From contig OZ316892.1 of NCBI GenBank assembly GCA_973895155.1, positions 14,686,861-14,750,860 on the forward strand: 64,000 nucleotides of DNA, read 5' to 3'. Position 1 is the stretch's first letter. The number at the start of each line of letters is the position of its first letter. The stretch is from Marsupella aquatica (Eukaryota; Plantae; Marchantiophyta). A model generated the notes under the pieces. It did no database searches. It saw only the letters and a list, made by a program, of their open reading frames with translations, and was not told where the DNA came from. Shown here in pieces: positions 3,776 through 53,384 of the stretch. The translations under genes were made by a program, and so were the position numbers.

Positions 3776-8300
<4,525 letters not shown>

Positions 8301-25427: not shown

Positions 25428-25526
25428 CCAATTTCCGTGCTTTAGGTTCAAGGTCTGTCATCTTTTGTGGGGGTTCTAGGTAGGATCGACGTTTTGCGTG
25501 GTTTTACGGAGGTTTTGTGCAGGATC

Positions 25527-26045: not shown

Positions 26046-26994
26046 GGTCGACTTCGCTCAATTCTGGCAAGTTCCATTTCACTTCAATGATTGTTGTTTT
26101 TGGTGGTTTTAGATTGAGATGATCACTTCCGGTATTGATTTCCTGGCGAACTTGTGAAAATCCATCACCTAGATTGAAGTTCTCTTTCTGTTTCAACCTT
26201 CTGTTTTCATTTTCCTGCATGATACGAGTGGATGAATGGGTAATCAATATGCTTGCTCAGTAGGGAGGATTCTAGCCAGGAGTCCAGGTTTGGAGTACCA
26301 CGAGGCACAATGCAAGGAACTGGACCATGAAGGGGAGGGGAGGGGAAGATAATACGAGCTTAGTGGTACGATAATTTGCTTTCTTACATCTAAATTTTCT
26401 CAACTTCTCTTGTTGGTTTGGTCTAGCTATCATCAGAATCACCTCTTGTTGTGCTCTTCTTCATAATAGTGCAGATCATTTGCATCGTCTTCCCAGTTCT
26501 TATGCAATTTTTGATCACCATCACATCCATGTCTTCCAGTTCTGTTGCATAGTTTCAATACTACATGGATAACAGTGTAGGGACTGCTTTCATTTGGCAG
26601 TTGAATCCTGTCCTTGAATTTGTGAATGAAGTTTCCTCTCAGGATTTTGTGGTTGCCTGCGAGCTCTAGGCAAAGTGGACTTCATGACAGGGATTGATCT
26701 GCGTCTGACTTGAAGGGGGAGATTCTCGGTCGAAGCACTAGGTATGACTGACTGCATGTCGACGAATGTTGGAGGTGCATGTTTTGAATACCATGACATG
26801 GATGTTTGCGAGTTCTTCTACTCTCTTTGAATACCATGACATTCGTGTCTTCTAAATTTGCTTATCTGTTGAAGTCGTTGGCATGAGTGTAGGGACATTA
26901 AGGAGTGGAAAGCAATACAGGCAGAAGGTCAAGGTCATAGGCTGGAGAGGTTGGGTTCGATTTTGAGCCCAACCAAGGTTCATGCTCAGTTTCC

Positions 26995-30843: not shown

Positions 30844-30912
30844 GTGTGGACACCCTTCCCGTGTGGTACTAAGCCATTTTTGTGGTAGCTTCAGTGGTCT
30901 TTAGATGCAATG

Positions 30913-31271
30913 TGTCATGCCGAGGGACAATGCCGCTTGTGCACATCGGCATGTCCCTCGCATGCCCGCTAGGTATGTAGTTAGGGCTAGTGTACTACTT
31001 GAGTTAGTGTCATGTTCTTGTAGCAAGTCTGGGCCGTTCTTGAAGCAAAACGTGCTTGTTAGTGTGACGCCTTGACTTGATCTACTTAGGGCATGTCTTT
31101 CTTTGTCGGTTTTCAGTTCTTCTTGAATCGCTGTTGACAGAGCTCAGATAGTGCTCGTCAATTCCGTACACGGGATTCACACAGTGATTCGTTAGATGCT
31201 CCCGGCCGATCTTGGCATCCCGCCGGTTTTCGATTCGATTTCAGTACGATTGTTTCTCTTACGCCTTTTAT
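30913..31271 (+). repeat. Element 1 repeat A1 (359 bp)
   Basis: Direct repeat of 42023-42381, with about 11 mismatches by eye, mostly transitions. Confidence 0.95.
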
Positions 31272-31283
31272 TCAAGAAGAACT
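31270..31283 (+). promoter_or_regulatory. Putative self-priming PBS of element 1
   Basis: ATTCAAGAAGAACT sits at the end of A1 and is the exact reverse complement of 31115-31128 (AGTTCTTCTTGAAT), which starts in an initiator-like TCAGTT. Confidence 0.7.
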
Positions 31284-34200
31284 CGTCGAGATAGGGAAGA
31301 AGATTGCTTGTGACGATTTCGATAATTTCTGGTGAAGCCATTGCAATTTCTTCGACGGACATCGGAGTGACGAGTTAAAAGTTATGGGTTTATTGTGGTG
31401 TTATGTGTATACTTAAGTGTATACACATATGTATACACATAACAAGGGGTCCGGAGTTCCCTTTCCGGTTGCATCCGCGACTCTTTTGCTGCTTCCGACT
31501 GTCACTGCCGTTTGCCGCACGACCACCTCCCGACTACAACCTGTGGTTTGTAGGCCGCTGGCCCTTCATATTCCGGCCGCGACCTGCTTCCGGCCCAGTT
31601 TGCCTCCCGGCCGTGGAGACTCCTGCACCTTGCACGCCCGTCTTCCTCATTTTTGCTGCTTCCTGCTGTGGTCATTTCTCAGCCGCGTGACCACCTGAGT
31701 TTACAGGGCGCACCTCTCTTCCCGACTGCATAGGGCCGCGCGCCCGTTTTCTCTTGTTTTTTTTTCTCATTTTTGCCTTGCCAGCCTCGATATTTTCTTT
31801 CCTCTTTTCCTGCCGCTGCCAGTTTCCTGCCTTTATCTTGTAGGCTGTGCGTACAGGGCATCGTGTCTCCCACTGCCAGCATTTAATTAAGGAGAGGAGG
31901 GGGAGCAAGTACAAGCCGGGAGTCGAGAGGAGAAGGCACAGAGGCCTATGAAGCATTAACGAGGGGAGGGGGAGAGCCGAGCCACGGAGGGGAGGGGGGA
32001 AGCAGAAGGAGGGCACGAAGCCCTATGAGGAATTAAGGAGGAGCAGGGGAGTTAAGTCGACTCCCTTCTCGGGAGTACATACGACTCCCTCCTCAAGAGT
32101 TTCTGCCAGGGGCCCAAGGCCCTATGAGGGATTTAAAGCAGGGGAGTGGGAGCTCGTAGCTTCCCTTCGAGCTCATAAAGAGGGGGTGCGAAGCCCTATG
32201 CAGGGCTCGTGCCATTAAGAGGCCCAGTGTCATTCCTTTTGCCTTGACCTCCTCCCTCTTCGCCATTTTCCACTTCCTGCCCTTTTCTTTCTCCCTGCCA
32301 CCTTTGTATACACATACGGGAATGCAGTGTGCCCGCCTTTACTCCCCCCGATCCTGTCACACGCGACTTCTTTCCGGCCGCGATCTGCTTCCGACACCTT
32401 TTTCTTTCTGGCCACCACGCTGATGCATACACATTGGGCACCGGCCGGTGCCCTTTACGTGTATACACTGGCCTCCTGTGTATAAACATAAGGGAGCCAC
32501 CCTTTCCACTGTTTTTTGGTTGTTTTTCTTCGTTTTTATTTTGACCCTTTTAGGCAAGGTCGGTATACACATCGGGGCCAATTTCATCCTGTTTAGCCCC
32601 GGCCTCCTTGCCTCACGCGATTGCTTCATTTGTGGGTTAATTTTCTAGCCTGGGGGCTGTCATTTCTTTTTCTTGTCAGTTTCTTTCCCGACAGCCCCCC
32701 ATTCCACCAGAAACAGGGGGAGAAGACATTTCCTAAGACATTTCCTATTGCTACCATTTCCAATAATTTGGCACCCCGGGTGAGCATGCAGCATGTCAGC
32801 AGAGGAGCCGAGTCGTAGTAGCTCATCGCCACCAACACCCCGGTACCACTTACGGAGTGATCCACGACCGTTGATGCCAATTTCATTGGAATCTCGGCAA
32901 TTTTGACGACGTCAGCAGATAGCAACAGCACCCACACCACGCAATCCTTCTGCTACATTTGGCGGTAGCTTCACCACTACTCTGAAGCCTGCTATCACTT
33001 CATTGCCATTTACCCCTTTTGCATCCGTGGTTGTTCCTGCTTCACCGACATACAGCATGGACGCCAGCCACTCATCTGGCCGCATTGAACGCTTCAACGG
33101 GCGGCCAGGCACTGTTTCTTTGCGTGAGTTCAAATCCACTTTCTACACTGTCGTTTACAAATTGGAGTTGAAGTACGGTAGCAATTTCACAAATGCTTTT
33201 GCATTTAAGCAGCTAGCCAGGTATGTGCACCATGAGGCTTTGGATGTGTATGAGCAGCACTCTCAACGGCTGCTTGCTGTCACACAATTGCCTAACCCTG
33301 CCTATGCCAGTGCAATTGCGGCAGCATCATAATTGGCCTTACAGAATGCCATTGCAGCCCATGCTGCTGCTCCTGCCACTTCCCCTCCTACTCCAGTTCC
33401 TACCACGGCGCCAGTTACTCCCATTGTCTTGGCACAAGCTACATCAGGCATTTCTCCCACCATTGATTCTCCTGCCTTTGCTGATCCAGTGGCTGAGTTT
33501 TTCCAGGTTCTTGAATTGGAATTCCCAATCAAGAGTGCTGACAAAATCATGCAGTTGGCCACCTTTGTGAGGCAGCGCGATGAAACATTGAAGATGATGT
33601 ATTTCCTGCTTCTCAAGCTGAAGGAGGACACCCAGAGCATCATTGACCTGGAAGCTGCTCATCGCTATCTTCGCGCATTGGAGAGCACACCAGCTCTCCA
33701 TTCCCAAGTGTTGCAACAAGTATTCTCAAAGTTTGGAGATAGCTACACCCTGCTCAATGTCTATGACACTGCTGAGAAACTTGAGTTGGCCCATGCACAT
33801 TATGAGGCCAGTATTGCGCGCCCACCGCGATCCAGGTACCAGGCTACTGCCCCTACACTGGCCACCCCTTTGCGTGTGCCACAGTATGGTTCCAAGACCA
33901 AGCCAGCCCATGCTGCTTTCATGCTGCCATCTTTCAACTACTGTGGTAACCCCAATCACAAGGCTAATGAATGTGATATTGTTGCTGAGAACCTGTCTTG
34001 TGATTTTTGCGGGAAAGTGGGCCACTTGGAGGCAGTTTGTTTTGCCAAATTCCCAGAGAGGAAGCAGCTATGACAACAGGCCACTCATCTTGCTCCTGTT
34101 TCCACTCCCCCACCAGCTCGGAGGGCTCCTACTGCATCAGTTGCTCCTCCTTCCAGTGGCAAAGCACCCAGTGCCAACAAATTGCCCAAGCAGCAACAGA

Positions 34201-35898
34201 AAGCAACCAGCTCAAAAAGAGGCTCACAACGCACAGACAACTCAACTCTAGTCTCTAACTCATGAGGTTGAGTCCCTACGTGCCCAACTTGCCAACATCA
34301 AAGGCAAGTCAATTGCCTCTACTGGTCCTTCTCAACCGGCTGGTCACGTGCAACCCATTCCTGGCCCAGGCACCACTGACAGTTTAGCATCTCTACCCCG
34401 CTCTTTCTATGGCTTGCCATTTGATGCTCATATGGGTGAGTGTGTGCTGTCCTCTGCTACACAGCCTGGCCTTACAGCAGAATTTTCAGATTCATTCTGC
34501 CCTTCCTATTTTGCTTACCAGCAGGCTAGTGCAGCCTCCCGTATTGCTCCCACCCGCCGCATTGTACAAGCTGATGGTCTTGCTGCCGGTCCTATGACTA
34601 GAGCCAGGGAAGCTCAAGCTGTCTTGCCCCAATCTTTTCAGCCACTCACACTTGCTGGAGAGCGCACCTTGTTGGTGAGGGGGGAGGGAGCTGCAGCTAC
34701 ATCCATTCCATCACCAGGTGTTGCTGACATTTCACAGGGAGTTGTTTCTCCTGAGCTGCTTGAGCATTTCACCTCCGGTATGGCACAAAGGATCCTTACA
34801 ACTCCACTTTTCAGTTGCCATGATTTACAACTGGATGCTAGAGCTGTCATCAGAGCGCTAGAGGGCTCACTACATTCTTCATCAGCCCCTGTGACACTGG
34901 TTTTGGAGGTCCAATCTTATGTACATACTGGACCTTCTTCTTCTCCTTTACATGTTTCCACTGGTTTGACTGCCCCAGTACCGATTGCTGCTGATTGTGT
35001 GACCAGAGCTACACTTGATTCTGGTCATGCTGCTCCATCTTTCCTGGCTATGTTGTTGAGTGGAAAGACCGTGGACACTAACTCCCTTCACAAGGTACCT
35101 CATCATTTGCCGAGAGTGGTGCCTAGTGACAGGACTTCAGTTTCCACCACCATTGCCATTGTTGACAACAGGAATTCAGTGGTTAAGTTGGAGGGTCACA
35201 CTCCTCAGGTGGTCATGCTAGACACAGGTGCTCAACCAGTGATATTGGGCATTCAGTTTGCCAAGAAGATGAGACTGTTGACTGATCATTTACAGCAATC
35301 CAAGTGGCACATTCGGACTGCTAGTGGCACTGTGGAGGATGTGCTGGGTGAGAGTTCTACTTTACTCACTCTCACTTTTAATGGAGGTACAGATCAGGAA
35401 CTGCATTTCCCAGTCAGATGTTTGGTTACCAATGCCACTACGTATGATGTGCTCATTAGCCAGGAGGCTTTGTTCCCACCAGGTTTTACCATTGACAACT
35501 GGCATGAGCATGCATACTACAGACTTGATTAGCATACTGATGGCTCACACTTGGGCTACATTCCACTTGATTTGCATGGTGCCCATACACCTATGGCTCA
35601 CCACTGTGTGTTGAAAGCAGTGCACACAGCTACCTATGTCAACCACCCATTGCAAGATTGGATTGAGGAGGATGACGATGAGGTGGCTGCTGCACATGCT
35701 GCTACACGTATAGCAGCACTTTCCAGCAACGTGGATCATCAACCAGAGATGGTACAACGGCTCCAAGCAGCCCATGGACCTTTGGTGGCTGCATTGCGCA
35801 AGTTTGAAGACCTTGGATAGCACAATGGACAGCCAATAGCCCCAATCTTGAGCGCACTAGTTACATGGACTCCCCATCTTAGTTTGACCAGCGACCAC

Positions 35899-36399
35899 AG
35901 GTCAAAGAGGATTTCAGTGTGGTCCAGCACTACTTGGGACCACCCCTTCTCATTGATGCAGTGCACTGTGGTTCTTATGCACATCGTCTTCGTAACTTTT
36001 GGACTAACCTTGCACCACCTTCCTTGTTGGAGTTAGCTCTTCACCACACATCCAGGGACACTAACCTCACAGTGGACCAGATTTTGGATCCTGATAGTTC
36101 TTGCCAACCAGTTACACGGCAAGAGCCAGCACCTTGGTATCCAGCCAATACCATTGGACAGCCCCGTGTTGCTTGGCCTACATTTGTGTCCTTTCCAGGT
36201 GCACATGCTTTTCAGGGTGATGGTCCTGGCCTGGTTTACCGGCATTCTACCGGTACATGGGATGAACCCTAGTCCTGAGGAGAGAGAACGGGCTATGGGC
36301 TTCCAACCCGGTACTACATGCCACACCAAAATCACCAAGCTGGCCAGGAATGCTTTACTTGGCAGGGTAATGGATCTTAATGCTCTCACTTGGCTCCTG
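35899..36399 (+). pseudogene. C-terminal half of a DNMT3-like C5 methyltransferase in element 1 (motifs VIII-X only)
   Basis: LIDAVHCGSYAHRLRNFWTNL, EP-SPEERERAMGF and RNALLGRVMD align with the element 2 domain. The FGG, PC and ENV motifs are absent upstream. Confidence 0.8.
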
Positions 36400-39300
36400 G
36401 TCACTTGCATCCTTTTTCAGATGTACATTCATCCAACATCAGGAGTTCCAGCCCTACCACTCCATGGTGCTGCTACATGGCATCCAGAAGTGCACTTATC
36501 TCTATTCAACACTCACCGCTCCAGTCCAAGTGTTAGGGGGGAGGAGGTCCCTTGTAACGTGGCTGATATTATTTCTGAGTTTCATGGTGTGGATCAGACC
36601 AGAGCAACAGATACAACAGGCCGTGGAGAGGCCTCATCACCTTATCAGCAGCATGCTAGCAGCTTGGACAGTGGAGAGGCTAGCACTTCTGGCTCTTCAA
36701 GCATGAGTACATCAGGGCCTATTCCTAGTGTTGCCAACTACACGTTCATCATGGGCAACCACCTGAGTAAAAGACAGAAGGACCAGTTGCTGAATTTGCT
36801 CCTCAAGCATGAGAACGTGTTTGCTTTCTCTATGAAGGACTTGGGTAAGTGCAAGACCATGCAGTTCTCCATTGAGTTGGCTGATGAAACACCTATCTTC
36901 AGGCGGAGACATCGTTTGAGTAAGCATGAGTGGCAGCTGGTGGATGAGAGGTGCCAAGAGTTATATGAAGTTGGTCTTATTCAGCCATCTACATCAGATT
37001 TTGCAGCAGCTACAGTGATGCCAGCAAAGAAGGATTCCAGTGGATTGTGGACAGAGAAGCGCATGTGTGGGGACTACAGGCCACTGAACCTGGTCACACC
37101 CCAGGACAGGTACCCCATGCCACGGCTAGAGGAGCTATTTGACAACATTGGAGACTTAGACATCTTCACTCTTGTGGATCTAAGGCAAGGCTTTAACCAG
37201 ATTTTGCTGCTTGCAAAGGACCGCAAGAAAACAGCTTTCCATGGCAGTAACCAACTATGGGAGTGGTTGGTGATGCCATTTGGCTTGAAGAATGCGCCCA
37301 TATTCTTTCAAAGAGTCATGGACCAGGTTCTTCAAGGTGCTGAGTTTCTGAAATGCTACATTGATGATGTCTTGGTCCACAGCAAAGGATTTGACCAGCA
37401 TCTACTTGACCTCGAGGAGCTATTCATGAGGCTTAAGAAGGTGAACCTAAAGATACACCCCAAGAAGTGTGAATTTGCTGTCAGATCAGTAGTATACCTT
37501 GGGCACCGCATTCTTCCAAATGGAACCATGGCTCACTGGGCCAAGGTGGTATCCATCTTGGAAATGCCCACTCCTACCGATGTTCACACTTTGAGGAGTT
37601 TTATTGGGTTGTGCAATTACTACCGGATCTACATCAAAGATTTCAGCACCATTGCACACCCATTGTATGCTTTGTTGAAAAAGAATGTGACTTGGACATG
37701 GAGTACAGATGTTGAGGCAGCATTTGCCACTTTGAAGGAGAAGCTCTCAGAATACCCGATGCTGAGAAGACCTGATTTCAGCAAGGTCTTTGTGCTCCAC
37801 ACAGATTGGAGTGCCCTTGGGATTGGTGCCATTCTGGGCCAGCATGATGAGGAAGGTAAAGAGTACGTCATTGTCTATGCATCTAGGAGCAACAATCAGG
37901 CAGAGAGTCATTATTCTTCGTATGAGGGTGAATGTCTTGCTGTTGTGTGGGCTATCATACATTACAGGCCCTACCTCTATGGGACCAGGTTTGTCCTCTA
38001 CACCGACCACCAGCCCTTGAAGTGGTTGATGACCAACGACAAGCTTACTGGCAAGCTTGCTCGTTGGGCGCTCATACTCCAGGAGTATGATTTTGAGGTA
38101 ATTCATAGGCCTGGTGTGACACATCAAAATGCTGACACTATGTCCCGCAGCCCTTTGATTGCCTCTGATGATTCCTCAGATGCACGGCAGGATTTTGACC
38201 AGGTTTCCATCCTGCCTACATTTCATGCATCTACCTATCTTGCTTTGCTGCCATGCTACGTTGTCGACCAACCTGTGGTGGACATATGGGAGGAGAGCGA
38301 CACTCTGAGATTTCTGCAGCATGGGGAGTACCCCACCCATGTTACTGCTGCCCAGAGAGACTGAATTTAGCAAAGGTCCAAGCGCTACTTGTGGAAGGGA
38401 GATCATCTTGTGCGCTGCTTGCCAGATAGGGAAGTGGTGGTTCCACCCATTCATGAGAGGGTTGGCCTTATCCGTAAGGTACATTCTGAGCTTGGTCATT
38501 TTGGCGTTAAGAGGACTTACAGCCTCTTGGTCCCTCATTATCATTGGAGAGGCATGCATGGCCAGGTTCGAGATGTTATTGCCCGGTGTGAGCAGTGTGA
38601 TAGGGTAAGGACTTCTTTCACATCTCGGCAACCCACACTTCATCCACTCCCTATTCAGGGCATGTTTTATCGTTGGTCATGTGATTTGGCTGGAGAATTA
38701 CCCCTCACATCTCGGGGTAATCTCTAAATCATGATCATGATAGAGCATTTCTCCAAGTGGATAGAACTTGTGGCATTGCCGGATAAGACCTCCCGTAGCA
38801 CCAGCCAGGCATTCCTGCAACAAGTTCTCAGCCGCTTTGGAGCTTGTGCAGAATGTCTCACTGACCAGGGCTCAGAGTTTAGAGGAGAGTTCCAGGAGCT
38901 GTTGATCAGGCCCTCATTGATCATCGTCGGACATCACGAGATCACCCACAGGCAGATGGCTTGGCAGAGTGCATGGTTCAGACATGCAAGAAGGGTCTCC
39001 GAAAGATTTGCCTCACCAAAAACAAGGAGGATTGGGACCTGGCCTTACCCTACATTGCCATGGGGTATAGGATGTCTAGACATGCATCATTGTCTAACTT
39101 TTCTCCCTACTTCTTGTTGTTTGGTCGTCACCTAGTTCCACCTTCTGCTATTGCTGCTCACATGCTTCAGGTGGTGGACTTGGATTCAACTGTGACTTGG
39201 TCTGATGTGATCTCTGAGAGGGCTACCCTATTCAGGAGGGTTATGCCCATGGCCATGGAGAATTTGGCCATTGCACAACATAGGGACACACTGCGTTATG

Positions 39301-39570
39301 CACACACACTAGGGGGCACTTTTCAGCCCAAGGTCAGGAAGTTTGATATGGGAGATTTTGTGTACTTGCAGCGGCAAGCTAACGACACCCTGGACACCTC
39401 TACCAGTCGTACTATTCTCAGGGTTAAAGCTATTCGACCGTCTGGAGTGCTAGAGTTACAAGGGGCAGATGGGCGCACAATTGCTGACAATGCCAAGAAT
39501 TGCGCCCCTTGTCATCTGCCTAACCTGGATCCCACCATTGTGACTTCTACCTGGATTCCACCTGTGGACT

Positions 39571-41639
39571 CCCTAGGCCCTTAGCTTAGCTAATATGGGA
39601 CCCCCCGTGCAAACAACTCAAGGGGTTTATAAATCCTTTTTTTGAATAATAGTTATAATCGCTTATAATGTAACAACCCTTTGTTTTATTGGGTTCCATG
39701 TTATAATGAACCAAGGTGATCTAAAAAATAGGGTTCAAGTAGTTTTATGGAAGGGTAAAGCATATGGGGCCGCCACACGTCAATAACTCATTCATCCACG
39801 TGTCATTACATCCTTGGTTTGGGGTGTGCAAACACATTTGAATTTTGGGGGATAGGGGCAATTTTTCCTTTATGGGGTCTCGTTTACCATTTATGGATGA
39901 CCAAAATGGTCTGCCATTGATCTCTTTGATGCTCTATATCAAACGGTGTAGGGATATATATATATGGCCTTGTAGGGCCCCCAAAGGAGGAGGTCAAGTT
40001 GACAACGTTGTTCAATGCGTGTTGCGTTATATGTGGATTCTATGATGCCCCAAGTGATAGAGAGAGTCTCAATCCAGAGTCACTTATGTACCTCGGTGGA
40101 TATTTATCACTCCTAGTGATCAAAGAATTGGTTTAAATGTAATAAGTTTTCCAATGCTTTAGACTCAAAGGATAACTTTCTTGTAAACAATGATGAATAT
40201 GCTTAACAAACTATGGGACAAACTTAAGTGCAATGTGGACTTACAATTTTCATAGATGACAGCGTAGGATGTTTACAACTTAAATTTGGATACTTGTATG
40301 CGTTTGTTTGACTCTTAAATGCCTTGACTCCTACCTTCTTGCGAGGAAGTGTGTACATAAAGAATCCCTGGGCCCTCAGCATTACTAATACAGGGAGGAC
40401 GTGCGAACAACGCAAGGGTATTTTTAATGTAATACAAACAAATTTTAATAATAATTTTGAAAGTAGGCAACATCCCTTTATATACATTCATCACAATATT
40501 AGTAATAAGGCTCTTATCAAATACATGTCACATTATTCTTACGCAAGGGTACCCAAAATGCCAAGTACACGCGTCACTATATGGTTGGGACACATACAGT
40601 CATCACCTCATTTGCACACGTGTTCATATAGTAAATCAGACATTTAATTATTTGTTGTCTTAAGGCAAGTTTAGTTTTGTGGGACCCTTTATGGTGGGAC
40701 AAATGGTTTTGGGTAGACATGTTTACCCACATGTTTAGGAGTTAAGTCTGGAGTTGAGTAAATGTTGGGAATCTGGGATTGATGGGGATCATGGATCAAC
40801 CCCACATGGACGGACAAGATTACTTTTGAATTCTCTTGAATAAAAAAGCCAGGTATGAGGCTAGATGTGTTTGCGTGTGTAGGGGGTATCGGGTGCTCAA
40901 CCAATGCTTGTTATAGTTGGTTCAGACTTTGGAGTATTATCCCTCGATTATACATATAGTACTCATGAAACCAGAAGTTTAGAGGCACTGTTGCGAACAC
41001 TAAGAGGAGAGTGCATGCCTGTTTGTATACTATAGGAAGAACTATTCTTGTAGTGTATTAATTTTGTTCATCTATATAAAATATGTATCCTGAACATTGG
41101 GCGTAACAGCCATACAAGTCCCCTATGCAGTCTCATCTATTTCAGTATGATATTTGCAATTTTAAAAATTCAAGGGTTTTTTCAATTCCTTGAAAAACTC
41201 TATTATAATTTACAAAAGGATAAAATTTAATAGAAAAGTTAATATTTTTACATTAACAAGGATATTTTTTTTGTGAACAAAAATATTAAGAAGGGGTACA
41301 CGGGGGGTGTCTGTTCTCAGGGGGGTTCACTTAATATAGTAAGAGTGAGGGCCCAGGGTAAAGAATATGTTGTTCCTATTTTTGCTTTTGATAATGTGAA
41401 ATGTTTATTCCAATCTGTTTGACTTAGAATCTCTTTGACAAGATTTTTTTTATAACACCTGAAGAGCATATTTAATGTCATTTTGATGAAGATTATAATA
41501 GCCCAAAGGGCTTTCTTAATGACCCAAAAGTAATTTATTAATACTAATAAGAGCTTTTTAAAAGAGCAAAAAATAGTACTGGAGGGGAGGGGCGTTCACA
41601 GACGGGTTCCATTAATATACACGGAGTACGGGCCCAGGG
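39571..41639. mobile_element. Non-autonomous TIR DNA element inserted between integrase and PHD of element 1
   Basis: Ends are CCCTAGGCCC...GGGCCCAGGG. 8-bp TSD TGTGGACT at 39563-39570 and 41640-41647. Removing it restores ...WIPPVDYPCKMC. Confidence 0.9.
40366..41358. mobile_element. Second non-autonomous TIR element with the same end type, nested in the previous one
   Basis: Perfect 13-bp TIR CCCTGGGCCCTCA. 8-bp TSD TAAAGAAT at 40358-40365 and 41359-41366. Confidence 0.9.
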
Positions 41640-41844
41640 TGTGGACTACCCTTGCAAAATGTGTTTGCGAATTGACGATGCTGACCAGATGCTGCTATGT
41701 GATAATTGCAATGGAGGGTACCATCTTTTCTGCTTGCGGCCTGAACTTACCCAGGTGCCAGAAGGGTTATGGTTTTGCCCTTCCTGTGCTCCACATGCCA
41801 CCTGACTTTTCCTCAGCCCTCCTTGTGACTGTGGTCTGGGGGGG

Positions 41845-42381
41845 ATACAGAGGTTTACACCTCCACTACGTACATACCACCTCAGTTGCTTTTTCTTGGC
41901 ACTTGGGAATGTGATTGGACTTTTTCTATGCATGTTGGTTGCTAGCAGCTTGCACATATGCATTGCCGGTGACTTGTATGTTTTCGATACACTATGGCTA
42001 CGATACTATATGTCACGACAGCTATCATGCCGAGGGACAGTGCCGCTTGTGCACATCGGCATGTCCCTCGCATGCCCGATAGGTATGTAGTTAGGGCTAG
42101 TGTACTACTTGAGTTAGTGTCATGTTCTTGTAGCAAGTCTGGGCCGTTCTTGAAGCAAAACGTGCTTGTTAGTGTGACACCTTGACTTGATCTACTTAGG
42201 GCATGTCTTTCTTTGTCGGTTTTCAGTTCTTCTTGAATCGCTGTTGACAGAGCTCAGACAGTGCTCGTCAGTTCCGTACACGGGATTCACACAGTGATTC
42301 GTTAGGTGCTCCCGGCCAATCTTGGCATCCCGCTGGTTTTTTATTCGATTTCAGTACGATTGTTTCTCTTACGCCTTTTAT
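41845..42381 (+). repeat. Element 1 B1 (41845-42020) + GC + A2 (42023-42381); the unpermuted 3' LTR-equivalent
   Basis: Directly follows a G7 tract (41838-41844, PPT-like). B1 matches 42384-42406 + 51527-51679 (176 bp, ~3 mismatches). A2 matches A1. Confidence 0.9.
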
Positions 42382-42716
42382 ATATACAGAGGTTTACACC
42401 TCCACTTGTCGTGCGCATACATATCGCTACACAACATACATCGCTTGTCACATACATCCAGACATAGTCACACTGCCACATCACAAATACAAGAGAATGG
42501 AATACAAGTGGAACTCATGTCCACACATGTCCAAAACCCACAATCGCCCCCCTAGCTGGGAGTAAGGTCCCCTAACTCTAGCTAGCCATGAGTTCTACAA
42601 GGTTGATATACACCTTTTTAGGTGTGAAGATCAGGAGGCCGGGTGCAAGTGAGCCCCATCGATCACCTACCTCCAATCCATATCTGCCAAGAGAACACAA
42701 ATGATACTAGTCGGCT

Positions 42717-45700
42717 TCACCGACACTGAGGACACAACCATGATCCACTAGGAATCACCTGTAATGGTGGTGTCAAACATGACATGTGCCATCCTCTAGA
42801 ACACTTATCACAAATCAACATAGTAGCTGCTCCCTGAGCAGATCCACACAACATACATTTCAAGCCAGCACGAACATGTGCCAAGCTTGGATCTACTGTA
42901 CCATCAATGTTGGGAAGGTGACATGGTGCATAGTTGCGCACATGATCCTTCCAAACCATACCATCGCGTCCCTCCAACATCAGGACACCAGAAGGCAACA
43001 CTTCACGCACACGTAAGATTGTCCGGCCTGCGGTCACATCAAGTGTCGTGGGTGCTGTCTGCTGCAAATAAACATAATCACCAGGATGAAATCGTCGAAT
43101 GCTTGCACGATAACCTCCTCCACGAATAGTGGCATACCTCAAAGTATCACGATGTTGGGCAATGGCAAGGTTGTCAAAAGCCATGGGCATCACTCTCTGA
43201 AATACCCGTGCTCTCTCTGAACACACCTTGACCCAAACATCAGGATCATCCAAGTTCACAACTGGTGCAGCATGACGACGAATAGCTGCTGGAAAATCTG
43301 GCTCTCTACCATAGAGCAAAAAGTAGGGTGAGAAGGATGCAAGTGATGCTTGCCGACTGAAACGGTAGCCCATAGCTAACCAAGGTAGCTGGAGATCCCA
43401 ATCTCCCAGATGACCAACCTGCAAGCCATACTTACGCAATCCTCTCTTCACAGTTTGCACAACTCTCTCAGCTAATCCATCTGCCTCAGGATGATCACGA
43501 GAGGTAGTGCGATGATCAATCAGAGCTTGTTCACACAAACTCTCAAACTCTCCACGGAACTCAATTCCTTAATCAGTCAATACCTCAGCTGGTGCTCCAA
43601 AATGACTGAGTACACGATCCAAAAATGTAGCAGCAACTCCTCCACTGGCTTTATCTGGCAACGCCACTAGCTCAATCCACTTGGAGAAGTGCTCCACCAT
43701 GACCAAAACATACCGATTATGACGTTGGGTAAGAGGTAATGGACCAGCAAAATCCAAACTCCAACGATATCCCAAACCCATGATCGGTAACGGGTGCAAC
43801 TGGGGAGTGGGAGCATTAAATGATGCTCTCACTCTGTCACATACCACACACTTAGCTATCAACTGCTGGACATGAGTGTGCATACCACGCCACCAATATT
43901 GTGTCTACAGCAAGCTGTAAGTGCGCTTCACACCAAAGTGACCCAACTCCTCGTGCGCATGTCGCACCAAATGTACTCGTTGTGATGGTTTTGGTACCAC
44001 CAACATCCTACCATCATGCAGTACTCTCAAAAGATGGTTTCCCTCCCATCGAAACCTCTTGGCTCTCTGTAGAACCCTGTCACGTTCCTTGGCATCAACA
44101 CTGCCAACAATAGAACTATTGCGCAAATATTCCAACACTCTCACATCATTGTGAATATCTTGTTGTCCAGAAGTTACCTCACCAACATCCACATCTGAAG
44201 ACTCATCATCCACTCCATCCAATGAGGTAGAGTCCACAGATCCACTGTATGCTGGCACCCAACAAAGAAAGGCAGATGCATGCCATCCTGGCACCATCTC
44301 CTTATCTGACTCATCACGCCATCTGGCTTCAGTCTCATCGTGCTGACTGGTACATGGATTGCGGCTTAATCCATCTGCATCCAAGTTCACTTTTCCAGGC
44401 CTATGCACCACCTGGAAATCATACTCCTGTAACAACAATGCCCATCGTGCAAGCTTCCCTTTAAGCTTGTCAGACTCCATTAACCACTTAAGAGGCTGAT
44501 GATCAGTGATCAAGGTGAAGGGGTTACCAAACAAGTAGCAATGAAAGTGTGCAATAGCCCACACTGCTGCCAAACACTCTCCCTCATAAGAGCTATACTT
44601 AGCCTCTGCTGAATTGTTTGATCTACTGGCATAAGCCACAACAAACTCATTCCCCTCATCATCCTTCTGAGTCAGCACTGCTCCAAGTCCTACTCCACTC
44701 CAATCAGTGTGTAGCTGAAATGGTCTGCCTGAAATGGGTCTTCTCAAAATAGGGGATGATGCCAACCTTTGCTTCAACTCCTGAAAGGCATGCTCCTGGT
44801 CATCACCCCAAATCCATTCCTGATCCAACTTAGTGAGTATGGTCAAAGGTTTAGCAAGCTGGCTAAATCCTTTAACATACCTCCTGTAGTAGCTCGCCAA
44901 TCCCAAGAATGCACGAACTCTACTCACATCAGTAGGACAAGGAATCTGTGTAATGGCCTCCACTTTAGTCTGCTGTACACCCAATCCCCCTGGATATATG
45001 GTGTGGCCCAAATACTCAATCTGGTCTTGGAAGAACTTACACTTGCTAGGATGGAGCTTCAACCCATGTGCTCTCAATCTCTCCAACACAGTCTGCAAGT
45101 GCTGCTGATGTTCTTCCACAGTAGAATAATAGACCAAAATATCATCAATATAACATCTGACAAAATCCAAACCTGCAAGGATTCGATCCATGACTCTCTG
45201 GAACTCAGCTGGTGCATTCTTCAACCCAAATGGTAAGAATAACCATTGATACAAACGATCTTTGCCATAAGAATCAATCCCCCAGAATGCTGTCTTGGAC
45301 CTGTCAGCATGCCTAATTGGAAGCTGATGGTATCCTGCCCTCAGAATCAATGAACTGAAAACCTTTGCATGCCCCACAGCATCAAAGATCTCCTCAGGTG
45401 TGGGCATGGCATATCGATCAGATTTTGTCTGGCGATTAATAGGTCTGTAATCACCACACATGCGCCTATCTGTGTAATTGCCATGCACATCCTTCTTGGC
45501 TGGCATCACTATGGCAGATGCATACTCCCCATATGAAATCTCCACCAATCCAGCCTCCAACAAATCTTGAGTTCTGCTTTGAATCAGAGCTCTCTCCATG
45601 TCACTATAACGGTATGGTCTACGAAAGATTGGCGCATCACTAGCCAATTCAATCTGAATACCAGGGCCCTTCAATGTCCCCAAATCCTTCATGCTGAATG

Positions 45701-48700
45701 CAAAACAATTCCAATAACTCTTCAGGAATCGATGCATGCGACATCTCTCCTCCCCTATTAACTTAGGGCCAAGCTGTGGTTCCCAACTCTCCACCAAATC
45801 CCTAATATCTCTTTGTAGGGTAGAAGAGATAGCCGATGATTGCTATTTAGCAGTAGATTGAGAAGTCCCTTCCTGCTCAACAATCTGTCCAGCCGCCAAT
45901 CCTGTCATAGGTCCATGAACTGTCTGCTCGCCCCCAGCTGTGGTCAATACTGTCTCAGTGGACCGCAAGCTCACCAAGGGACAATCAGTAATTCCGCCAG
46001 AGCGCATCCGCAACTGTTCAGCTACTCCCAAGCTGATAATCCAAGTCAAACAATTCAAATCCATTGCTTGACCAAGAACCTGGCACCGCAAACCCTCTGA
46101 CACAGAGGCAACTGCAGTGGTGCCAGTCAAAAATCCCATAGCACGCTCTCTCTCATCAGCAGTAGGCTCCACTAACTGCTGGAGAGCTGTGTCCCATAGA
46201 AGTCCAGGGCCACCTACTCTGAATGCATATGAAGCAGAGTGGCTTACAAGAGTGGGTAATGCACAACGTGGGCACCCAACTACATTGACCATTGCCAATG
46301 GAGGTCTATCAGGTTGGGTCACACCCTGTGCACGATGCCCTGGATCCAAAATATCATCCACCACTAAGGCTGGTGAGCGTGGAATGTTGTCAAATGCGCG
46401 CTTCAGCACCTCACATGGGATCAAATTAGTCCACCACAAGCGTGGACGATGTGCACGAGAACCCACACGTGCAGCATCCAATAACACAACAGGTCCAATC
46501 CAAGACCTCACCTGGTGAACACTGGCAACGATCTGACTACGATCATCACCTAACAATGGCACATTCTCCAAAATGTATGCTGGAGACTATGTCTGATGTA
46601 GCTGGAGATGACGCAGCACCCGTAACATCTCCCAAAACAATGCAGAGCGTGGATCATGAAGTCCATGCCCAATGCCAGCTCTAGATTGGCCCTGACATGG
46701 CCAACCAGCAATCACCAAATCAATGGGGCCAACACGATGTAGATGATCCGCCCCCAACAATGAAATATCAGCAGGTAGTGCATGCTGATAACCACGAACA
46801 GCATCCACTGGCAGCAACTGTGGATATCTATCCACCAACATAGCTAGCCACATGTCGCAATGAGACCCTCCGTGTTGTCTCATCTGTCTCCACATACAAA
46901 TAACGACGCACAGGAATTCCTGCCTGAAGAACAGCAGCCAATCCAGTGCTAATCCCACCAAAAAGATCCAACAAACAAATACCCTCCGGTGGATACTGCC
47001 AAGCAATAGGAGTGGTATCCAATGGTGAAAGAGTCACAGGTCCATTTGCAAGAGACTGCTCTGCTCCTGACTGTGGTGTAAAAGCATGACGCCATGCATC
47101 ATGTACCAATCGTGTTGCTGCCTGTGGTAAGGCTTGTGCAATGCCCCACACTGGTGGCACAACACTGCCAACAGGTAATCCTCGCATGACGTGCTCTTCA
47201 TGAGACTCCTCCAATGGTGGAACATCGGCTGCATGCGCATTACCCTCAATCAAATCATCAGGTCTAGCAATTACACCACTGAATGCTGCCAAAGACAATG
47301 GTGTGGATTTAGGGCCTCCCACAGGTCCACTAAATCTCACTGGCAATTTGCTCAATCGAGCATCTCCTGACTGCCAATCAGGTCTATATGACACTGATTC
47401 CTCCCAAAAATCAAGAATAAATCCCATGGGGTAGAGCACTGTACATCCCACCAACACATCATATGACTCTGCCTTAGTCAGAATAGCTCGCGCCTGTATC
47501 TGTGAGCTATCTGTGGTATGACCTTCCTGAATCCTCAAATCAAGTGGTCTCCTGGTGATATGCTGTGTAGGTGTAGGTCCCCCCAATGAAGTCTGAATGG
47601 GAAAGGGACAATCCTCCAAATCCTCTGGATGCAATCCCAATCCACGTATGACAGACTTCCCCAACATCAAGGGCTGAGCACCAGTATCCAGTAACACTCT
47701 CTCTGGCTGGTATACTGCTCTAGAAGGCTCAACTAATCGGAAGATACCACTCCGATTATCCAATGACACAACACTAGGTTTAAACCTAGTCCTCTCAAAT
47801 GCAGGGCGTGCTGGTAAATCCACCAACCTCGCTGCTGTTGCATGCCATGTCTCACTAGTAGCAGTAGGTGGCATGGTCTTCACTACATCAACACTGCAAG
47901 TTGCTTCTGCATGGGAAACAACCACTGGAGTGTCCTCACAGAGTGTAGCTGCCAATCTGAACACTTCTGCAGGACCAACTCCCAAGTTCAGCATGTTTGT
48001 CATTGAAAATAATGGGGTGCATACTATGGCAGTAGCCGCCCCCAGCAAGGTACCTGTCATCCCTGCTGCATCACTACCTGATTCTGCCAACTTACCCACA
48101 TCAGGGTTTGTCCAAACCGGGTTCATAGAGGCAGTCTGAACAATGTAAAAGACTGAGGAAGCTTTGTCTGCCTACGTGCATCCCCCCTTTGTGGATCTAA
48201 CTCCACTACTGCTCCTCGGGGCTCAAGAGCTTTGGCTGCCCCACGTGTCAAAGCTGCTGATGCATCAATATGTGCAGTGCCACACATGAATCCCATGGTG
48301 GCAAGGTCTCCATCAGCTCCATAAGATGTGGAAGGACCATGGGATATGGAAGGTCCATAGGATGTAGATGCCCCATCACCAGAATTAGGTCTCACCTGGG
48401 AACTAGCCATGGCAGCTAGTTGTTGCTCCAATTGAGCAATCTTAGCATCCTTTGGATCTATGGTTACAGCAGGGGCAGCGTCACCTCCCTGTCTCCCTGC
48501 ATGTGGCATGCCACGACCACGTCCACCACCTCTACCTCCTCCTCCTCTTCCCTGATCATGTGTACGGGATCCTCCTCTCCGTAACTCAGGGTGGAGTGAG
48601 AAACACCTATCCTTGGTGTGTCCAGGAGCTCCACAGTGATCACACTATCGCTGATCAGGCGCTGATGCTCCCCCTGATCCTCTATGATCTGGACAATATC

Positions 48701-49826
48701 TCTATGCATGATCCCCACCATAGGTCCAACATCCTGACTGCTGTCCAGCATAAGAGGGCACAGGTCTTTGGCTGGTAGACTTTCGTGCAGTAGGCTTCTC
48801 CCTCTGGCTCTTCCATGCAGTAGGCTGTGGTATGGATGTAGATGCAGCCTTTGGTGCTTCCTTGGCAAATCCGGAAGTCACCACCTTCTCATTCACCATA
48901 TTGAGCTCAATGCGCTCAGAAAGGGTGAAAACAACTGCTAATGTGGGATCTGCATCCCTAAGCAGAGTGACATCTCTCACTCTGCGTCGCAATTCTCTGT
49001 CCAAAATTGCATACCAAAACTGGACTGCCTGAGCCTCTGTCACTCCCTTGGTGATAGTGATCAATCTGTGCATACGTGTGTATGCCTCACGTAGGCTCTC
49101 TCCAGTCTTGCGTTGGAACTCCTGAAGACCCTTCAACTTATCAGTTCTCACACCCTGATAGTTCTGCTTCAGTACCTCAAAGAATTCCACCACGGGATTA
49201 AATGCTGGCGCAACTCCAGTTCCTGTCATAATCACACCGGCAGGAGTAGTGGTGGATGCTGCTGGAGTGCTGCTGGTGGATGGTGTGCCACTCTGGCTAG
49301 TGCTGCTAGAAGAAGCAGCAGCTGTGGCAATGGGTTGGGCAGCCGCACTAGTGCCATAGGTGATGGACACGTAATTAGGCGACCAATGCTGCCTCCATGC
49401 CTCAATCTCAACCAAATGAGCCTTCCGAAACTCATTGTAGTCATCCATGGGTGGCCCCTCCAAATGCTGGAATAATCCCTTCCATGCCATGAAAGGGGTA
49501 AACAACGTGACGTTACGCAATGTCTGCATATCGCACCACGTATCAAACTCCTGGATGAAGTCATCCAGATCAATTGTGCCAACTGCACCAGAGTATCGTC
49601 GTGGGTCCTTTGTAGCCCCGTACATCTCGTCCATATCCCACAACAAAGGTGCAACCACCTGATGATGAGGAGAACTGGTCACTGAGTCCTCATCAGAATC
49701 ACTGTCTGAAGCTGCACTGCTGACTGCTACCAATGCCGCTGGCCGAAACTGTGCCCCACTCCGAGTGAAACCGGTCCGTCGTCCATCGGGTAATCCAGCA
49801 GCACCAAAAGAATCCGTGGTGACCAA
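42717..49826 (-). pseudogene. Element 2 gag-pol polyprotein: Gag(CCHC)-PR-DNMT-RT-RNaseH-IN-PHD; several in-frame stops and about two frameshifts
   Basis: Motifs CDHCGAPGHTKDRC; LLDTGAQP; RMCGDYRPIN, LPFGLKNAP, YIDD; LHTDWS, DHQPL; HEELGHFG..CVVC, WSLDFAG, ADGLAERVV. PHD CMLC..LICDKC..WHMSC..WLCPQC*. Confidence 0.95.
46032..46980 (-). pseudogene. Full-length DNMT3-like C5 cytosine methyltransferase domain between protease and RT of element 2
   Basis: Motif I LDLFGGI; II YVE; IV DLVIAGWPCQG; VI ILENV; VIII SRAHRPRLWWTNL; IX ERERAMGF; X RCQVLGQAMD. One frameshift (~46848) and one TAG (46587-46589). Confidence 0.92.
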
Positions 49827-50374
49827 CCCTAACCTAATCTATGTGCTAACCCTAAGGGCAATCTATCTCTGTCAGCACCACAAGCACTCACCATGGTGTG
49901 TTGGGTATCACTCCAACATCACCAAGAGAGAAATACACAGCACACTAGAATGTCTAGTTGCAAACCCGGATCACTCCTATGGAATCAAGCGCCCACACGA
50001 AACTAACATGGCGCATAAACAGGAAATATGTGTGAAGAGGATCCAGAAACAAGAATGGATACCATTCAACTCTCCACACAAAAGCAAATGCAAATCAATA
50101 TGACAATGTGCATAAGGTTCAAGGAAGAGCCTTCATAATAGGCTTCACAATGGCACTCCAATGTTGTAGATGAGAACCAAGGCAAAATTGGTTCAATCTG
50201 TGAGTCTAGATGGACTCAGAAGTATCAAAAACCCTAAAACAGCCTCTGATTTGGCCTAGAATAGGCCTCTAAACAAACCGGGAAGTGTATAAAGCCCCCT
50301 GGCGCTTGAATCTAAACAACAAGTTGTCAAAGCTTATGTGTACACAAGGTGGGATGAGAACTTGCCAGTTAAGC

Positions 50375-50925
50375 GCTCGCGGCTGGGAATAGCCCCGGGA
50401 TGGGTGACCTCCTCGCACTCAACCTTGTGCCTCCCCTCGCGCTCACGGCCCGGAATAGCCCCGGGATGGGTGACCTCGACCTCGCGCCTGCCTGCGCTCG
50501 CGATGGGTGACTTCGCGCTCGCGGTTGGGAGCACTTTCGGGATGGGTGACCTCTCGCGTCGCCTCGCGCGAGCACTTTTGGGATGGGTGACCTTGTGTGC
50601 CTCACACCTGACCCCAAAAACGACTACTTCCTTCACGAAAAGCTCCCGAAAACTGTCGATTTTCTTCATGAAAAACGCAGCCCTTCCACAGAATTGGCAG
50701 CAGCTTGATTCAACACCTTTGACCCTCATTTCTTTCACTGAAATGATGATACCGTCGCACGGGGCATTGGCAGCTCTTTTCCTTCAGGAAAAGAGCCGTC
50801 GCTTCACCTGCGCCTTGCCAACATCGTCCAACAATAGCCGGCAATCAGATCTGAAGCCCCACAGTAGCCGACAATCAGATCTGAAGCCTCACAGTAGCTG
50901 GCAATCGGATCTGAAGCCTCACGGA
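50375..50925. repeat. Tandem repeats in the 5' leader of element 2
   Basis: gatgggtgac recurs about 5 times in 50398-50595. A 30-bp unit acagtagc(c/t)g(a/g)caatc(a/g)gatctgaagcc(c/t)c occurs x3 at ~50831-50922. Confidence 0.8.
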
Positions 50926-51181
50926 TTGACTTCCACTGTCCAACATCTACTCAACATTCGCTTTCCTCCACGAATCATCAATCGACCTCCAACTCAAAAC
51001 CTGTCACAAATCACAGATTTGTACATCGATCGGGAAGCAGGCCGATCGGACAACAACGATACAGGTCAAGATACCAACGATCTGTTCGATAACAACACAC
51101 GATCCGAGCTACCACGAACCGTCAACAACTCAATCAATCAAACTTCTGTCTGCACAGTCCGTACAACAGATTTTGAATGCG

Positions 51182-51193
51182 ATCTTTCAATGT
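51182..51193 (-). promoter_or_regulatory. Putative self-priming PBS of element 2
   Basis: 51182-51193 (ATCTTTCAATGT) is the exact reverse complement of 51372-51383 (ACATTGAAAGAT). On the minus strand the latter begins in an initiator-like TCATCT. Confidence 0.6.
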
Positions 51194-52168
51194 AATCTCC
51201 ATACAATCGGCACAATGATCTCGGTCAACAATACCCCATCGATCCCGCACCGATCCGATCACACACGTATGTCAAGCCAACGCACCTTGCACTACTCAAG
51301 GAATCCACGTTACACAAGCGGAGCTCACAGCCACCATAGCCACACTCAAGCTCCTCTCTCTCCAAGGCTCAACATTGAAAGATGACCTTTCAATGCCTCA
51401 CAAGTGAGAAGTACCCCCTCACACAAACCTGACAGAACCTTATCGGCTCCAATAGCACTCATACCAAACGTACATACTCTAATAGCACGATATACTACTA
51501 CACTACTCAGAATGGTGTGACACACTACGTACATACCACCTCAGTTGCTTTTTCTTGGCACTTGGGAATGTGATTGGACTTTTTCTATGCATGTTGGTTG
51601 CTAGCAGCTTGCACATATGCATTGCCGGTGACTTGTATGTTTTTAATACACTATGGCTACGATACTATACGTCACGACAAATGTAGCAGTAGCTTCAGAT
51701 ACAATGTAGCTTGATTGGAAGGCAAGGAGGCCCATGATACATCTACACTGCAAGGTCACAACTCGACTTGCAACTTGTACTGGAAACATTTATGAATAAA
51801 AAGCAAGTTACATTCACTGTGTTCTTATGTATAAAAGTTATTCATTCTGCTGGATACTACCTTCAGTCTGCACCTTCAGTTTTGGAAGACATTGTCCATA
51901 TAGTCTTCGCACCACACTTAGCCATTTTTCCAACGACAGGATATTTTGCTTGAAGAAGAAATTTGAGCGAGGGTACGTAAATGGCCAACACTAGTGGTTT
52001 CACACAAGATGCACATGACAACTGCAAAACAGTTTCGAAATTTGTAGAACATCTCTAAATTGTTGGAGTACAATGCTGTTGCAGACTTCAATGTCTGCAA
52101 CTAAAGCAAAATTGCAATTGCTACTTCCTGTGAGCTATTATTTGAACTTGTTACCACTGTGGTGTAAA

Positions 52169-53384
52169 CTAAGTCAAGAGCTCATTGCTACAAAATACTT
52201 CCCCACAACAGGTGCACCTAAATACTTCATGCCCAGACTCATCTACTCCCAGCAACTCAACATTAACTCTATGACCATCTGCTTTGATAGGAGCCCTCCA
52301 TTGTGCACCCATTGCACTAAATTGTCGTTGAAGCCATGCCTCCGCCTCAGAATGGGACCTAAAAGACTTGTGACTAGCTCCACTTAATCCACTCACCTGA
52401 CATTCTGCCTCCTCCCAAGTACGATATATTCCAGGACTGCGCCCCCTAGCAATGGCATACCATTTCTTCTTTGAGGTAGAGCCTAGATCACAATTGTATG
52501 GAAGAGCAATTGACTTAGAGCGAGAGGACAAAGTCTGTGATTGTAATTTCACCCTTGTGGCAGGCTGAGTTTGCGCAACGTCAACCAATTGTGCTTGTGA
52601 GGCTGACGAAGATGGACCCCGGGTACGCAACTCTTATATAATAGACAGGGGTCTACATTTTTATGTGGACTAAAAAGTTGGTTATACAAAATAATTAAAA
52701 TTTGAAAAAACCTGGGTTTTCCACTTTTAAAAATTTTCAAGTCATATAAAAGGTTTGGTTTTCTTCATTTTCCATATGAAATTAAAAAATATTCTTATAC
52801 ATGTTGTAATTTTTATTAAAAGATTTTTAAAATTTTAATAAAAATCCTAAAAAGCTGGCTAGTTTGGCTGTAGACCCCTGTATTAAAAAAAACCCATATA
52901 ATTTGGTTTTGATCAACTTTTTGTACATCAAAACATGTTTGGTTTTTTTTTAAAGTTACATTTTTGAATTCCTTGAGTTCAGAGGTACAAGACTTTAGTA
53001 GACTAAAATGAAATCTAAGATGGTCAATTGGATATAAGGCCGTTATAAGGAATTAAAAACTTGCCTTATAAAAAGGGGAGTTGCATACCCGGGAGATGGA
53101 CCTGCATTAGCACCCTGGCGCCGAGCCAATACAGGTTTTGGTGGCCCAACAACAGCCACTACAGGGGAATCGTGACCCTCTGATTTTGATGGCACTGTAC
53201 TTTGAGCAAGGGGAGGTAGCCTATCTCGATTCCACACTGAAGACAAACACAAAATCCGTTCCAACATGCGATGGAGGAAGAAGAGTAGTGCACTCAAACC
53301 TGCAAATACGGTCCATATGGCGAACCCCAATGCCCAAAACAACTGAACTACAAAACCAACACTGCCTTCATTGAACTTGGCCAT
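52169..53384 (-). pseudogene. MULE-borne gene: N-terminal hydrophobic helix + RNase H1 N-terminal/caulimovirus P6-like hybrid-binding domain; ~243 aa once the MITE is removed
   Basis: MAKF..FVVQLFWALGFAIWTVFAGLSALLFFL joins in frame (GANAGPS|SSASQ) to KWYAIARGRSPGIYRTWEEAECQVSGLSGASHKSFRSHSEAEAWL after excising 52618-53093 and one TSD copy. Confidence 0.8.
52618..53093. mobile_element. 476-bp AT-rich MITE
   Basis: 16-bp TIR CCCGGGTA(C/T)GCAACTC. 8-bp TSD AGATGGAC at 52610-52617 and 53094-53101. Confidence 0.92.

Follow-up and report, generated by a model that had tools for sequence, protein, structure and literature searches.

Putative integration sites inside the reverse-transcribed repeat of a Gypsy-type retroelement clade from the liverwort Marsupella aquatica and green-lineage relatives

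A 64,000-nucleotide stretch of the Marsupella aquatica genome (contig OZ316892.1 of assembly GCA_973895155.1, positions 14,686,861 to 14,750,860 of the forward strand; hereafter the window) contains two related Gypsy-type retroelements, one nested in the other, which are the subject of this study. Read directly, the outer one (element 1) is composed of a 4-bp target site duplication (TSD) AATG, a repeat segment A1, an internal region, a run of seven G, a second repeat segment B1, the dinucleotide GC, A2, the dinucleotide AT, B2 and again AATG, and its ends are TGTCATG at the left and CACGACA at the right. Both element 1 and the nested element 2 encode gag, protease, a cytosine methyltransferase, reverse transcriptase (RT), RNase H, a DDE integrase and a PHD finger; matches for protease, RT, RNase H, H2C2, rve and PHD were obtained in both, the gag matches were weak, and the reading frames of both are interrupted by stops and frameshifts (Table 1).

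Self-comparison of the window returned A as a direct repeat of 97% identity (30915-31271 and 42025-42381) and B as one of 98% identity (41864-42020 and 51523-51679), with 11 differences over 359 positions between A1 and A2 and three over 176 bp between B1 and B2. An earlier first-pass annotation had read element 1 as A-gag/pol-B-GC-A-AT-B, and all of its lengths, coordinates and spacers held; B2, taken there as contiguous, in fact lies in two parts (42384-42406 and 51527-51679) separated by element 2. The annotated ends were also read directly, as was the AATG duplication at 30909-30912 and 51680-51683. Where B1 meets A2, the window letters at 42014-42029 are CACGACA-GC-TATCATG, and position 42024, an A in the window, is a G in nearly all of the contig depth of three other sequencing runs. 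This supports CACGACA-GC-TGTCATG, with seven of eight palindromic pairs, as the family form of the near-palindromic, head-to-tail junction of attachment (att) sequences that had been annotated here. An assembly error at 41845-42406, which the annotation had named as a possible refutation, is unlikely because the repeat copies differ, contigs of runs X1, X2 and X5 join the end of A to the start of B, and the layout is found in independent contigs.

Table 1. Features of elements 1 and 2, in window coordinates (PBS, primer binding site; MFE, minimum free energy; TIR, terminal inverted repeat)
Feature	Positions	Strand	Remark
Element 1 left TSD	30909..30912	+	AATG
A1	30913..31271	+	359 bp; begins with att TGTCATG; putative distal U3 + R + U5
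Predicted self-primer	31115..31127	+	putative RNA 5' end; complementary to PBS, 13-nt match; helix in MFE fold
Element 1 PBS	31271..31283	+	immediately 3' of A1; lacks TGG start, so not of tRNA 3'-end type
Element 1 gag and aspartyl protease	32907..35529	+	weak zinc knuckle; broken by stops and frameshifts
Element 1 C5 cytosine methyltransferase remnant	35883..36269	+	about 0.4 kb lost relative to L054; on its own without a Pfam match
Element 1 RT-RNase H frame	36037..38361	+	
Element 1 integrase	38371..39581	+	H2C2, rve; broken
AT-rich non-coding insert	39571..41639	.	2,069 bp; 10-bp TIRs; 8-bp TSD TGTGGACT; separates integrase from PHD
Element 1 PHD finger	41650..41802	+	
Polypurine tract	41838..41844	+	G7
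B1	41845..42020	+	176 bp; putative proximal U3; att CACGACA at end
Spacer of internal att junction	42021..42022	+	GC; 2 bp, head-to-tail junction
A2	42023..42381	+	359 bp; G to A at second base, private to this copy
Extra bases at A/B join	42382..42383	+	AT
B2, first part	42384..42406	+	23 bp; last letters are element 2 TSD CACT
Element 2 B'	42407..42544	-	138 bp; CACGACA at end; G6 tract before
Element 2 integrase and PHD	42720..43904	-	H2C2, rve; D-x34-E spacing
Element 2 RT-RNase H	43908..45842	-	
Element 2 protease and C5 cytosine methyltransferase	45846..48171	-	PF00145, E 1e-8; methyltransferase between protease and RT
Element 2 gag	48126..49838	-	weak Retrotrans_gag match, E 0.041
Element 2 PBS	51182..51193	-	complementary to 51372-51383 within A'
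Element 2 A'	51193..51522	-	330 bp; TGTCACA at start
Element 2 TSD, second copy	51523..51526	+	CACT
B2, remainder	51527..51679	+	att CACGACA at end
Element 1 right TSD	51680..51683	+	AATG

Element 2 is a 9.1-kb member of the same clade on the minus strand, running from 51522 to 42407 with the ends TGTCACA...CACGACA and the TSD CACT. By self-comparison its layout is A'-coding-B', with one A', one B' and no internal repeat. In other samples, its family shows A'-to-B' joints, a B'-NN-A' joint (51522-AC-42407, NN denoting a two-base spacer) and diverse flanks at 42407. Element 2 lies within B2 of the related element 1, its insertion site (42403-42406) being 23 bp away from the A/B join. The 2,069-bp insert of element 1 is likely a non-autonomous DNA transposon of hAT or MULE (Mutator-like element) type; the letters of its empty site correspond to a loose end at 41640 in run X3.

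To place the window elements within their family, 79 metagenome and 13 genome-bin loci were fetched by RT alignment; A and B were mapped from three loci plus the window, repeats of the same insertion were collapsed via their flanks, and loci that were too short or lacked an end were left out of the end counts. Evidence from sequencing runs refers to Logan contigs. All 16 distinct 5' ends (14 loci and both window elements) start with TGTCA and carry the PBS after A, and B-NN lies upstream of A in none of these 16 visible ends, so that no conventional copy with a full terminal B-NN-A was found; in L042 and L057, A is not in the DNA fetched. The 3' ends, window included, comprise 14 of the form B-NN-A-B (A-coding-B-NN-A-B copies) and 13 in which the coding region is followed by B and then by flank (A-coding-B copies). 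Four further loci show B-NN-A with no second B in view, and L008 and L010 have a common deletion across the junction. Exact 4-bp TSDs flank seven of the nine complete copies (AATG, CACT, TACA, CCAA, CCAC, GGTC and TGAC).

The sequencing runs reproduce these boundaries. Contigs of three runs start at the TG of the A start (9, 5 and 8 contigs, flank agreement 0.48-0.52) and end at 42020 (15, 8 and 8 contigs, flank agreement 0.40-0.47), and other insertions begin at the same TG as A1, with diverse flanks. For the element 1 family, other runs also contain the PBS following 42381 and the end of A joined to the start of B, the precise form of this join being common (contigs with two bases skipped at 42379); the clade as a whole is abundant in the runs examined, with thousands of contigs. 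Independent insertions thus have the starts, the individual 4-bp duplications and the two layouts that the first-pass annotation had anticipated, and the preponderance of conventional copies that it had set against its own proposal was not encountered. That the element 1 locus is a one-off rearrangement or assembly artefact has a negligible probability: independent contigs contain 13 further insertions of this layout, three runs show the corresponding joints, and each of the two nested elements has its TSD. The internal-att layout is a genuine, family-wide feature.

Other searches were less productive. A scan of viral contigs found no relative, and a junction-pattern search of five binned genomes returned two already known junctions plus background matches near the control level. 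The circular assembly of L080, with a 127-bp terminal overlap, was considered as extrachromosomal circular DNA and rejected, since an assembly graph will reduce A-coding-B-A-B repeats to a cycle. L080, L081, L082 and L086 are plant or algal retrotransposon contigs in bins labelled bacterial, which is likely binning contamination.

The two seams of the A-coding-B-NN-A-B copies differ, with B-NN-A fixed and A/B variable. Of 19 B-to-A continuations found by alignment, 18 have a 2-bp spacer, as do two distant junctions found by motif or by eye, and the spacer letters over 20 junctions are GC (nine), AC (six), GT (two), AT (two) and CT (one); a G-run lies 57-193 nt upstream of the junction in all 20 cases tabulated. 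The B-NN-A junction recurs in distant, alga-like relatives, where the symmetry is kept and the letters are changed (GGCA-GC-TGCC in L078, eight of eight pairs in L082); in L086, which groups with Monoraphidium, the contig breaks off after the first part of the junction. Spacers AC, GT and AT would fit derivation from GC by CHG deamination, which the CT of L072 does not match. A TA at the start of A2 (element 1, L033, L054 and L071) was considered as a functional block and rejected, as A1 keeps TG and other samples have G; this TA also fits CHG deamination.

The 14 A2/B2 joins include six that are precise, four with deletions (1, 2, 2 and 147 bp), three with filler (2, 6 and 18 bp) and one that is unclear. 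This variation resembles the products of end-joining, like the end-joined junctions between two long terminal repeats (LTRs) that are established for retroviruses (PMC1180852, PMC7197481; statements on published work here and below refer to the available parts of the articles cited). Within elements, B1 and B2 differ by 7.3% and A1 and A2 by 9.9%, closer than the 10.7-10.9% and 13.4-13.5% found between elements. Rare variants are common to both copies of one element in 5 of 13 cases for B (chance 0.06) and 23 of 37 for A (chance 0.11), and no B2-specific lineage or column was found among the compared B copies. Because B1 and B2 are closest within their own element and no column is specific to B2, B2 appears to be re-copied from B1 in each cycle, like a U3.

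These data bear on a cycle like that of the PAT/Ngaro elements, in which the RNA would extend through B2, the A/B join would pass from one copy to the next, and templating would rebuild a circle junction equal to B1-NN-A2, which would then be integrated. The clade does share with Ngaro and PAT the A-coding-B-A-B order (PMC3783388, PMC5890265), the split direct repeats and an internal copy of the end-to-end junction (PMC3783388), and no single form of the join is more frequent than the precise one. However, at least 7 of the 14 joins are different, each B2 follows the B1 of its own element and not other B2s, the polypurine tract (PPT) and PBS are placed as LTR-type reverse transcription requires, and the clade differs from Ngaro/PAT further in its DDE integrase, protease and 4-bp TSDs. 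No tyrosine recombinase (PF00589) was matched in the scanned open reading frames (ORFs) of the window or in 8 of the 16 ORFs of L080, both long ones included. Such a cycle is considered quite improbable.

The start of reverse transcription is indicated by the bases directly 3' of A, which are complementary to a segment within A over 13 nt in element 1 and 12 nt in element 2. Primer/PBS matches of 10-13 nt are present in 9 of 13 copies, with letters that differ by family, and none of about 140 control positions gave so long a match; the 13-nt match of element 1 exceeds every one of its 143. Pairs of 12-16 nt with other letters were found in four of six further loci, this count being without a control, and in two families a TATA motif precedes the primer segment by 32-33 nt. 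A PBS complementary to a segment within the 5' repeat, with the RNA 5' end placed there by inference, is the arrangement of self-priming Tf1 and Tj1 (PMC4600332). ARAGORN found no tRNA in the window, and the sole grounds for rejecting a tRNA primer are that the PBSs lack a TGG start and match their own A. Across the family, the PPT precedes B and the PBS follows A, as the first-pass annotation had delimited the unit (B+GC+A) for element 1. From these positions of the PPT and the self-priming PBS, the reverse-transcribed repeat, which is the LTR in the sense of reverse transcription, would be B-NN-A, bounded by the G-run PPT and the self-complementary PBS and with the att sites inside its U3.

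The PPT and PBS also bear on a more conventional reading, in which A+B (TG...CA) is the genuine LTR, its left copy has been truncated, B1 is an additional repeat within the element and integration proceeds from ordinary linear ends. A2+B2 does run from TG to CA, and Gypsy-7a_cRei has been described with LTR subparts (PMC9940879); yet the PBS follows A and not B, the PPT precedes B and not A, the variable seam is A/B while the fixed one is B-NN-A, and in 13 copies A and B each occur only once. An LTR of the form A+B is very improbable.

Integration through att sites internal to the reverse-transcribed repeat is considered highly probable. In the proposed cycle, the RNA would begin inside A1 and end inside A2; its first 11-13 nt would prime the minus strand at the PBS in the manner of Tf1, as the complementarity suggests, and the G-run would prime the plus strand, giving a linear B-NN-A-coding-B-NN-A product whose tips lack att. 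Since the predicted cDNA tips are without att, the integrase would have to act on sites embedded in DNA. Host end-joining would connect the end of A to the start of B, consistent with the spectrum of joins, after which the integrase would nick after CA on both strands of the junction; owing to the 2-bp spacer, both resulting ends would be 3'-recessed with 2-nt 5' overhangs, as processed ends usually are. Inserted with a 4-bp TSD, such DNA would leave A-coding-B-NN-A-B, which is the observed product and, among the layouts seen, the only one to retain the terminal redundancy that the next cycle requires. Copies of the A-coding-B type, such as element 2, may stem from 1-LTR circles, from the pairing of half-sites of two junctions or from recombination between B1 and B2, and, having no 3' repeat, would be unable to replicate in cis. 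That the integrase opens an internal CA-NN-TG junction on cDNA whose tips were first joined into a circle is favoured with modest confidence.

An identical A-coding-B-NN-A-B product with an equally variable join would also arise if the integrase opened the left junction of linear cDNA and inserted both half-sites, and the host joined the end of A to the start of B while repairing the chromosome break. In the established model of reverse transcription, the left LTR becomes double-stranded first, and the linear route therefore accounts more readily for the use of the left junction alone (no mirror layout among 16). Locus L016 suggests, through the att of its inverted A, that half-sites of different junctions can pair. 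Against the linear route, it entails a chromosome break at every insertion, and the right att is kept in all 14 two-repeat copies, even in L052, where 147 bp are deleted, as would be expected had the joining come before att was selected; copies without the right att may have escaped this two-repeat count. The linear route is regarded as unlikely, if a serious contender. L016 itself (3243-3878) reads B-GC-A-PBS and then continues into an inverted A (1-180), the att of which makes up the right end, with the switch point at the primer/PBS complement, which suggests an integrated fold-back product of reverse transcription.

Several observations weigh against integration from joined circles or against parts of the proposed cycle. 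All of the evidence consists of integrated products, and the majority of the loci derive from a small number of similar metagenome sets. The two junctions of a free 2-LTR circle are equal, which predicts that the mirror layout, A/B-NN-A-coding-B, is about as common as the observed one; it is seen at none of the 16 5' ends, so that an extra assumption is needed, for example that the integrase loads on the left junction first. The circle-junction model of retroviral integration was refuted (PMC11054761). The primer/PBS match failed in 4 of 13 copies, all of them old; the primer/PBS helix forms in both folds, with modest whole-region z-scores of -1.9 and -1.6. The TSD of L033 matches at three of four positions and L034 has no clean 4-bp TSD. 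The first-pass annotation had proposed a 2-LTR circle opened by the DDE integrase at CA-gc-TG; its internal att site proved to be family-wide, and its covalently closed circle is a possible substrate, although linear cDNA gives the same product and the mirror layout is absent. It did not include the nested second element, the methyltransferase and PHD domains, self-priming or the published mention of the layout in KnitGypsy-Dnmt3.

The DDE assignment of the integrase was borne out, and the closest solved structures to a clade integrase are those of Ty3 and foamy virus. Foamy virus integrase cleaves the palindrome at its LTR-LTR junction after CA and generates a 2-nt 5' overhang (PMC1180852), and so shares with the proposed cycle a retroviral-type integrase, a palindromic CA...TG junction and the form of the processed ends. 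In foamy virus and the Panganiban-Temin model (PMC11054761), however, the junction is ligated and is not the main route, whereas the clade junction is templated and apparently the sole att. The spacing of the second and third catalytic residues is 34 in 163 of 164 pattern-matching proteins outside a 24-protein outgroup list and 35 in 15 of 16 pattern-matching outgroup proteins (240 proteins considered, those failing the pattern left uncounted). The D-x34-E spacing could be connected with the cutting of embedded junctions. A broader proposal, that of a widespread green-lineage clade with a 2-LTR-circle-type att junction hard-coded in U3, integrating obligately from end-joined circles with its D-x34-E integrase as a junction-cleaving transposase, is put forward tentatively.

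A quick RT-RNase H tree (44 rows, SH-aLRT support only, root uncertain) places all 14 rows with the junction or att-type ends within one 28-row clade (support 98), which also includes proteins of Marchantia, Closterium, Haematococcus, Pleodorina, Monoraphidium and Tetraselmis known from protein alone. Outside it fall L087, which has a TG soon after its PPT, and two algal chromodomain elements. The nearest named RT is from Marchantia, and protein relatives of the clade come from liverworts, Klebsormidium, Closterium and chlorophytes; integrases of K. nitens are 47-50% identical to a clade integrase, and one has a PHD. PF00145 was matched in L080 as well. In L086 (3832-8466), the methyltransferase lies between RNase H and integrase, not before RT, and a further open frame follows the PHD; P0112, a protein adjoining the clade, has PF05869 (Dam-type methylase) and a PHD in place of the cytosine methyltransferase.

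Elsewhere in the window, an ORF with an RNase H1 N-terminal (Cauli_VI) domain (52169-52633, minus strand) and a MULE transposase with a SWIM finger (54200-56435, minus strand) lie downstream of element 1. Exons of a glycoside hydrolase family 9 (GH9) protein and a cytochrome P450 and several tandem repeat arrays occupy regions 4024-4668, 19671-22647 and 25000-30400, and an inverted repeat pair lies at 25074-25426 and 58082-58580. The P450, GH9 and MULE genes and the nearest named RT by themselves indicate a land plant, likely a bryophyte, as the host.

In the circle transposition of the IS3 and IS30 families, DDE enzymes act on ends embedded in flanking DNA. Tf1, which resembles the clade in priming, has conventional LTRs and linear-end integration, and REM1 of Chlamydomonas is reportedly a PHD-bearing Gypsy element with odd, subdivided LTRs. 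A similar description fits Gypsy-7a_cRei of Chlamydomonas (PMC9940879), compared here by description only. Ginger1 transposases share TGT ends, the 4-bp TSD, a YPYY-like motif (by eye) and sometimes a PHD with the clade (PMC2836005); unlike the clade elements, Ginger1 and IS3/IS30 are DNA transposons without RT. With canonical Ty3/Gypsy elements (REXdb, PMC6317226; Ty3 integrase, 7Q5B), the clade shares the gag-protease-RT-RNase H-integrase order with gypsy-type RT and RNase H, the H2C2 and DDE core, PPT and PBS, the 4-bp TSD and TG...CA element ends. It differs from them in its att sites inside the repeat, its D-x34-E instead of D-x35-E spacing and the absence of two full terminal TG...CA LTRs adjoining PBS and PPT. 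REXdb was built with LTR_FINDER, requiring TG...CA LTR pairs, and its available text mentions neither PHD nor methyltransferase (PMC6317226).

The closest published description is that of KnitGypsy-Dnmt3 from Klebsormidium nitens (de Mendoza et al. 2018, PMC5890265), which has Gypsy domains and, according to the legend of Fig. 4c, DIRS-like repeats. Like the window clade, it combines a cytosine methyltransferase (DNMT) in Pol with A-coding-B-A-B repeats; on its termini, TSD, att junction, priming and mechanism the available text is silent. By comparison of descriptions, its junction would be the same as in the window clade. The layout together with a DNMT appears to have been noted in print this once, without a mechanism, and the integration route appears undescribed; the literature search, which left subscription papers, Repbase reports and theses mostly outside, found no description of an internal att junction, self-priming or a circle route for the clade. 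The present analysis also connects the published Gypsy elements that carry a DNMT with a distinct mode of replication.

LTR elements and retroviruses are held to integrate linear cDNA only, with circles as dead ends (PMC11054761, PMC7197481). If the proposed cycle is true, the clade would be an LTR lineage with a circle as productive intermediate, in which the Panganiban-Temin model is realised in nature. Its elements would be missed or mis-dated by finders that look for two TG...CA LTRs. The clade would offer a natural system for circle-junction integration and for the role of host end-joining.

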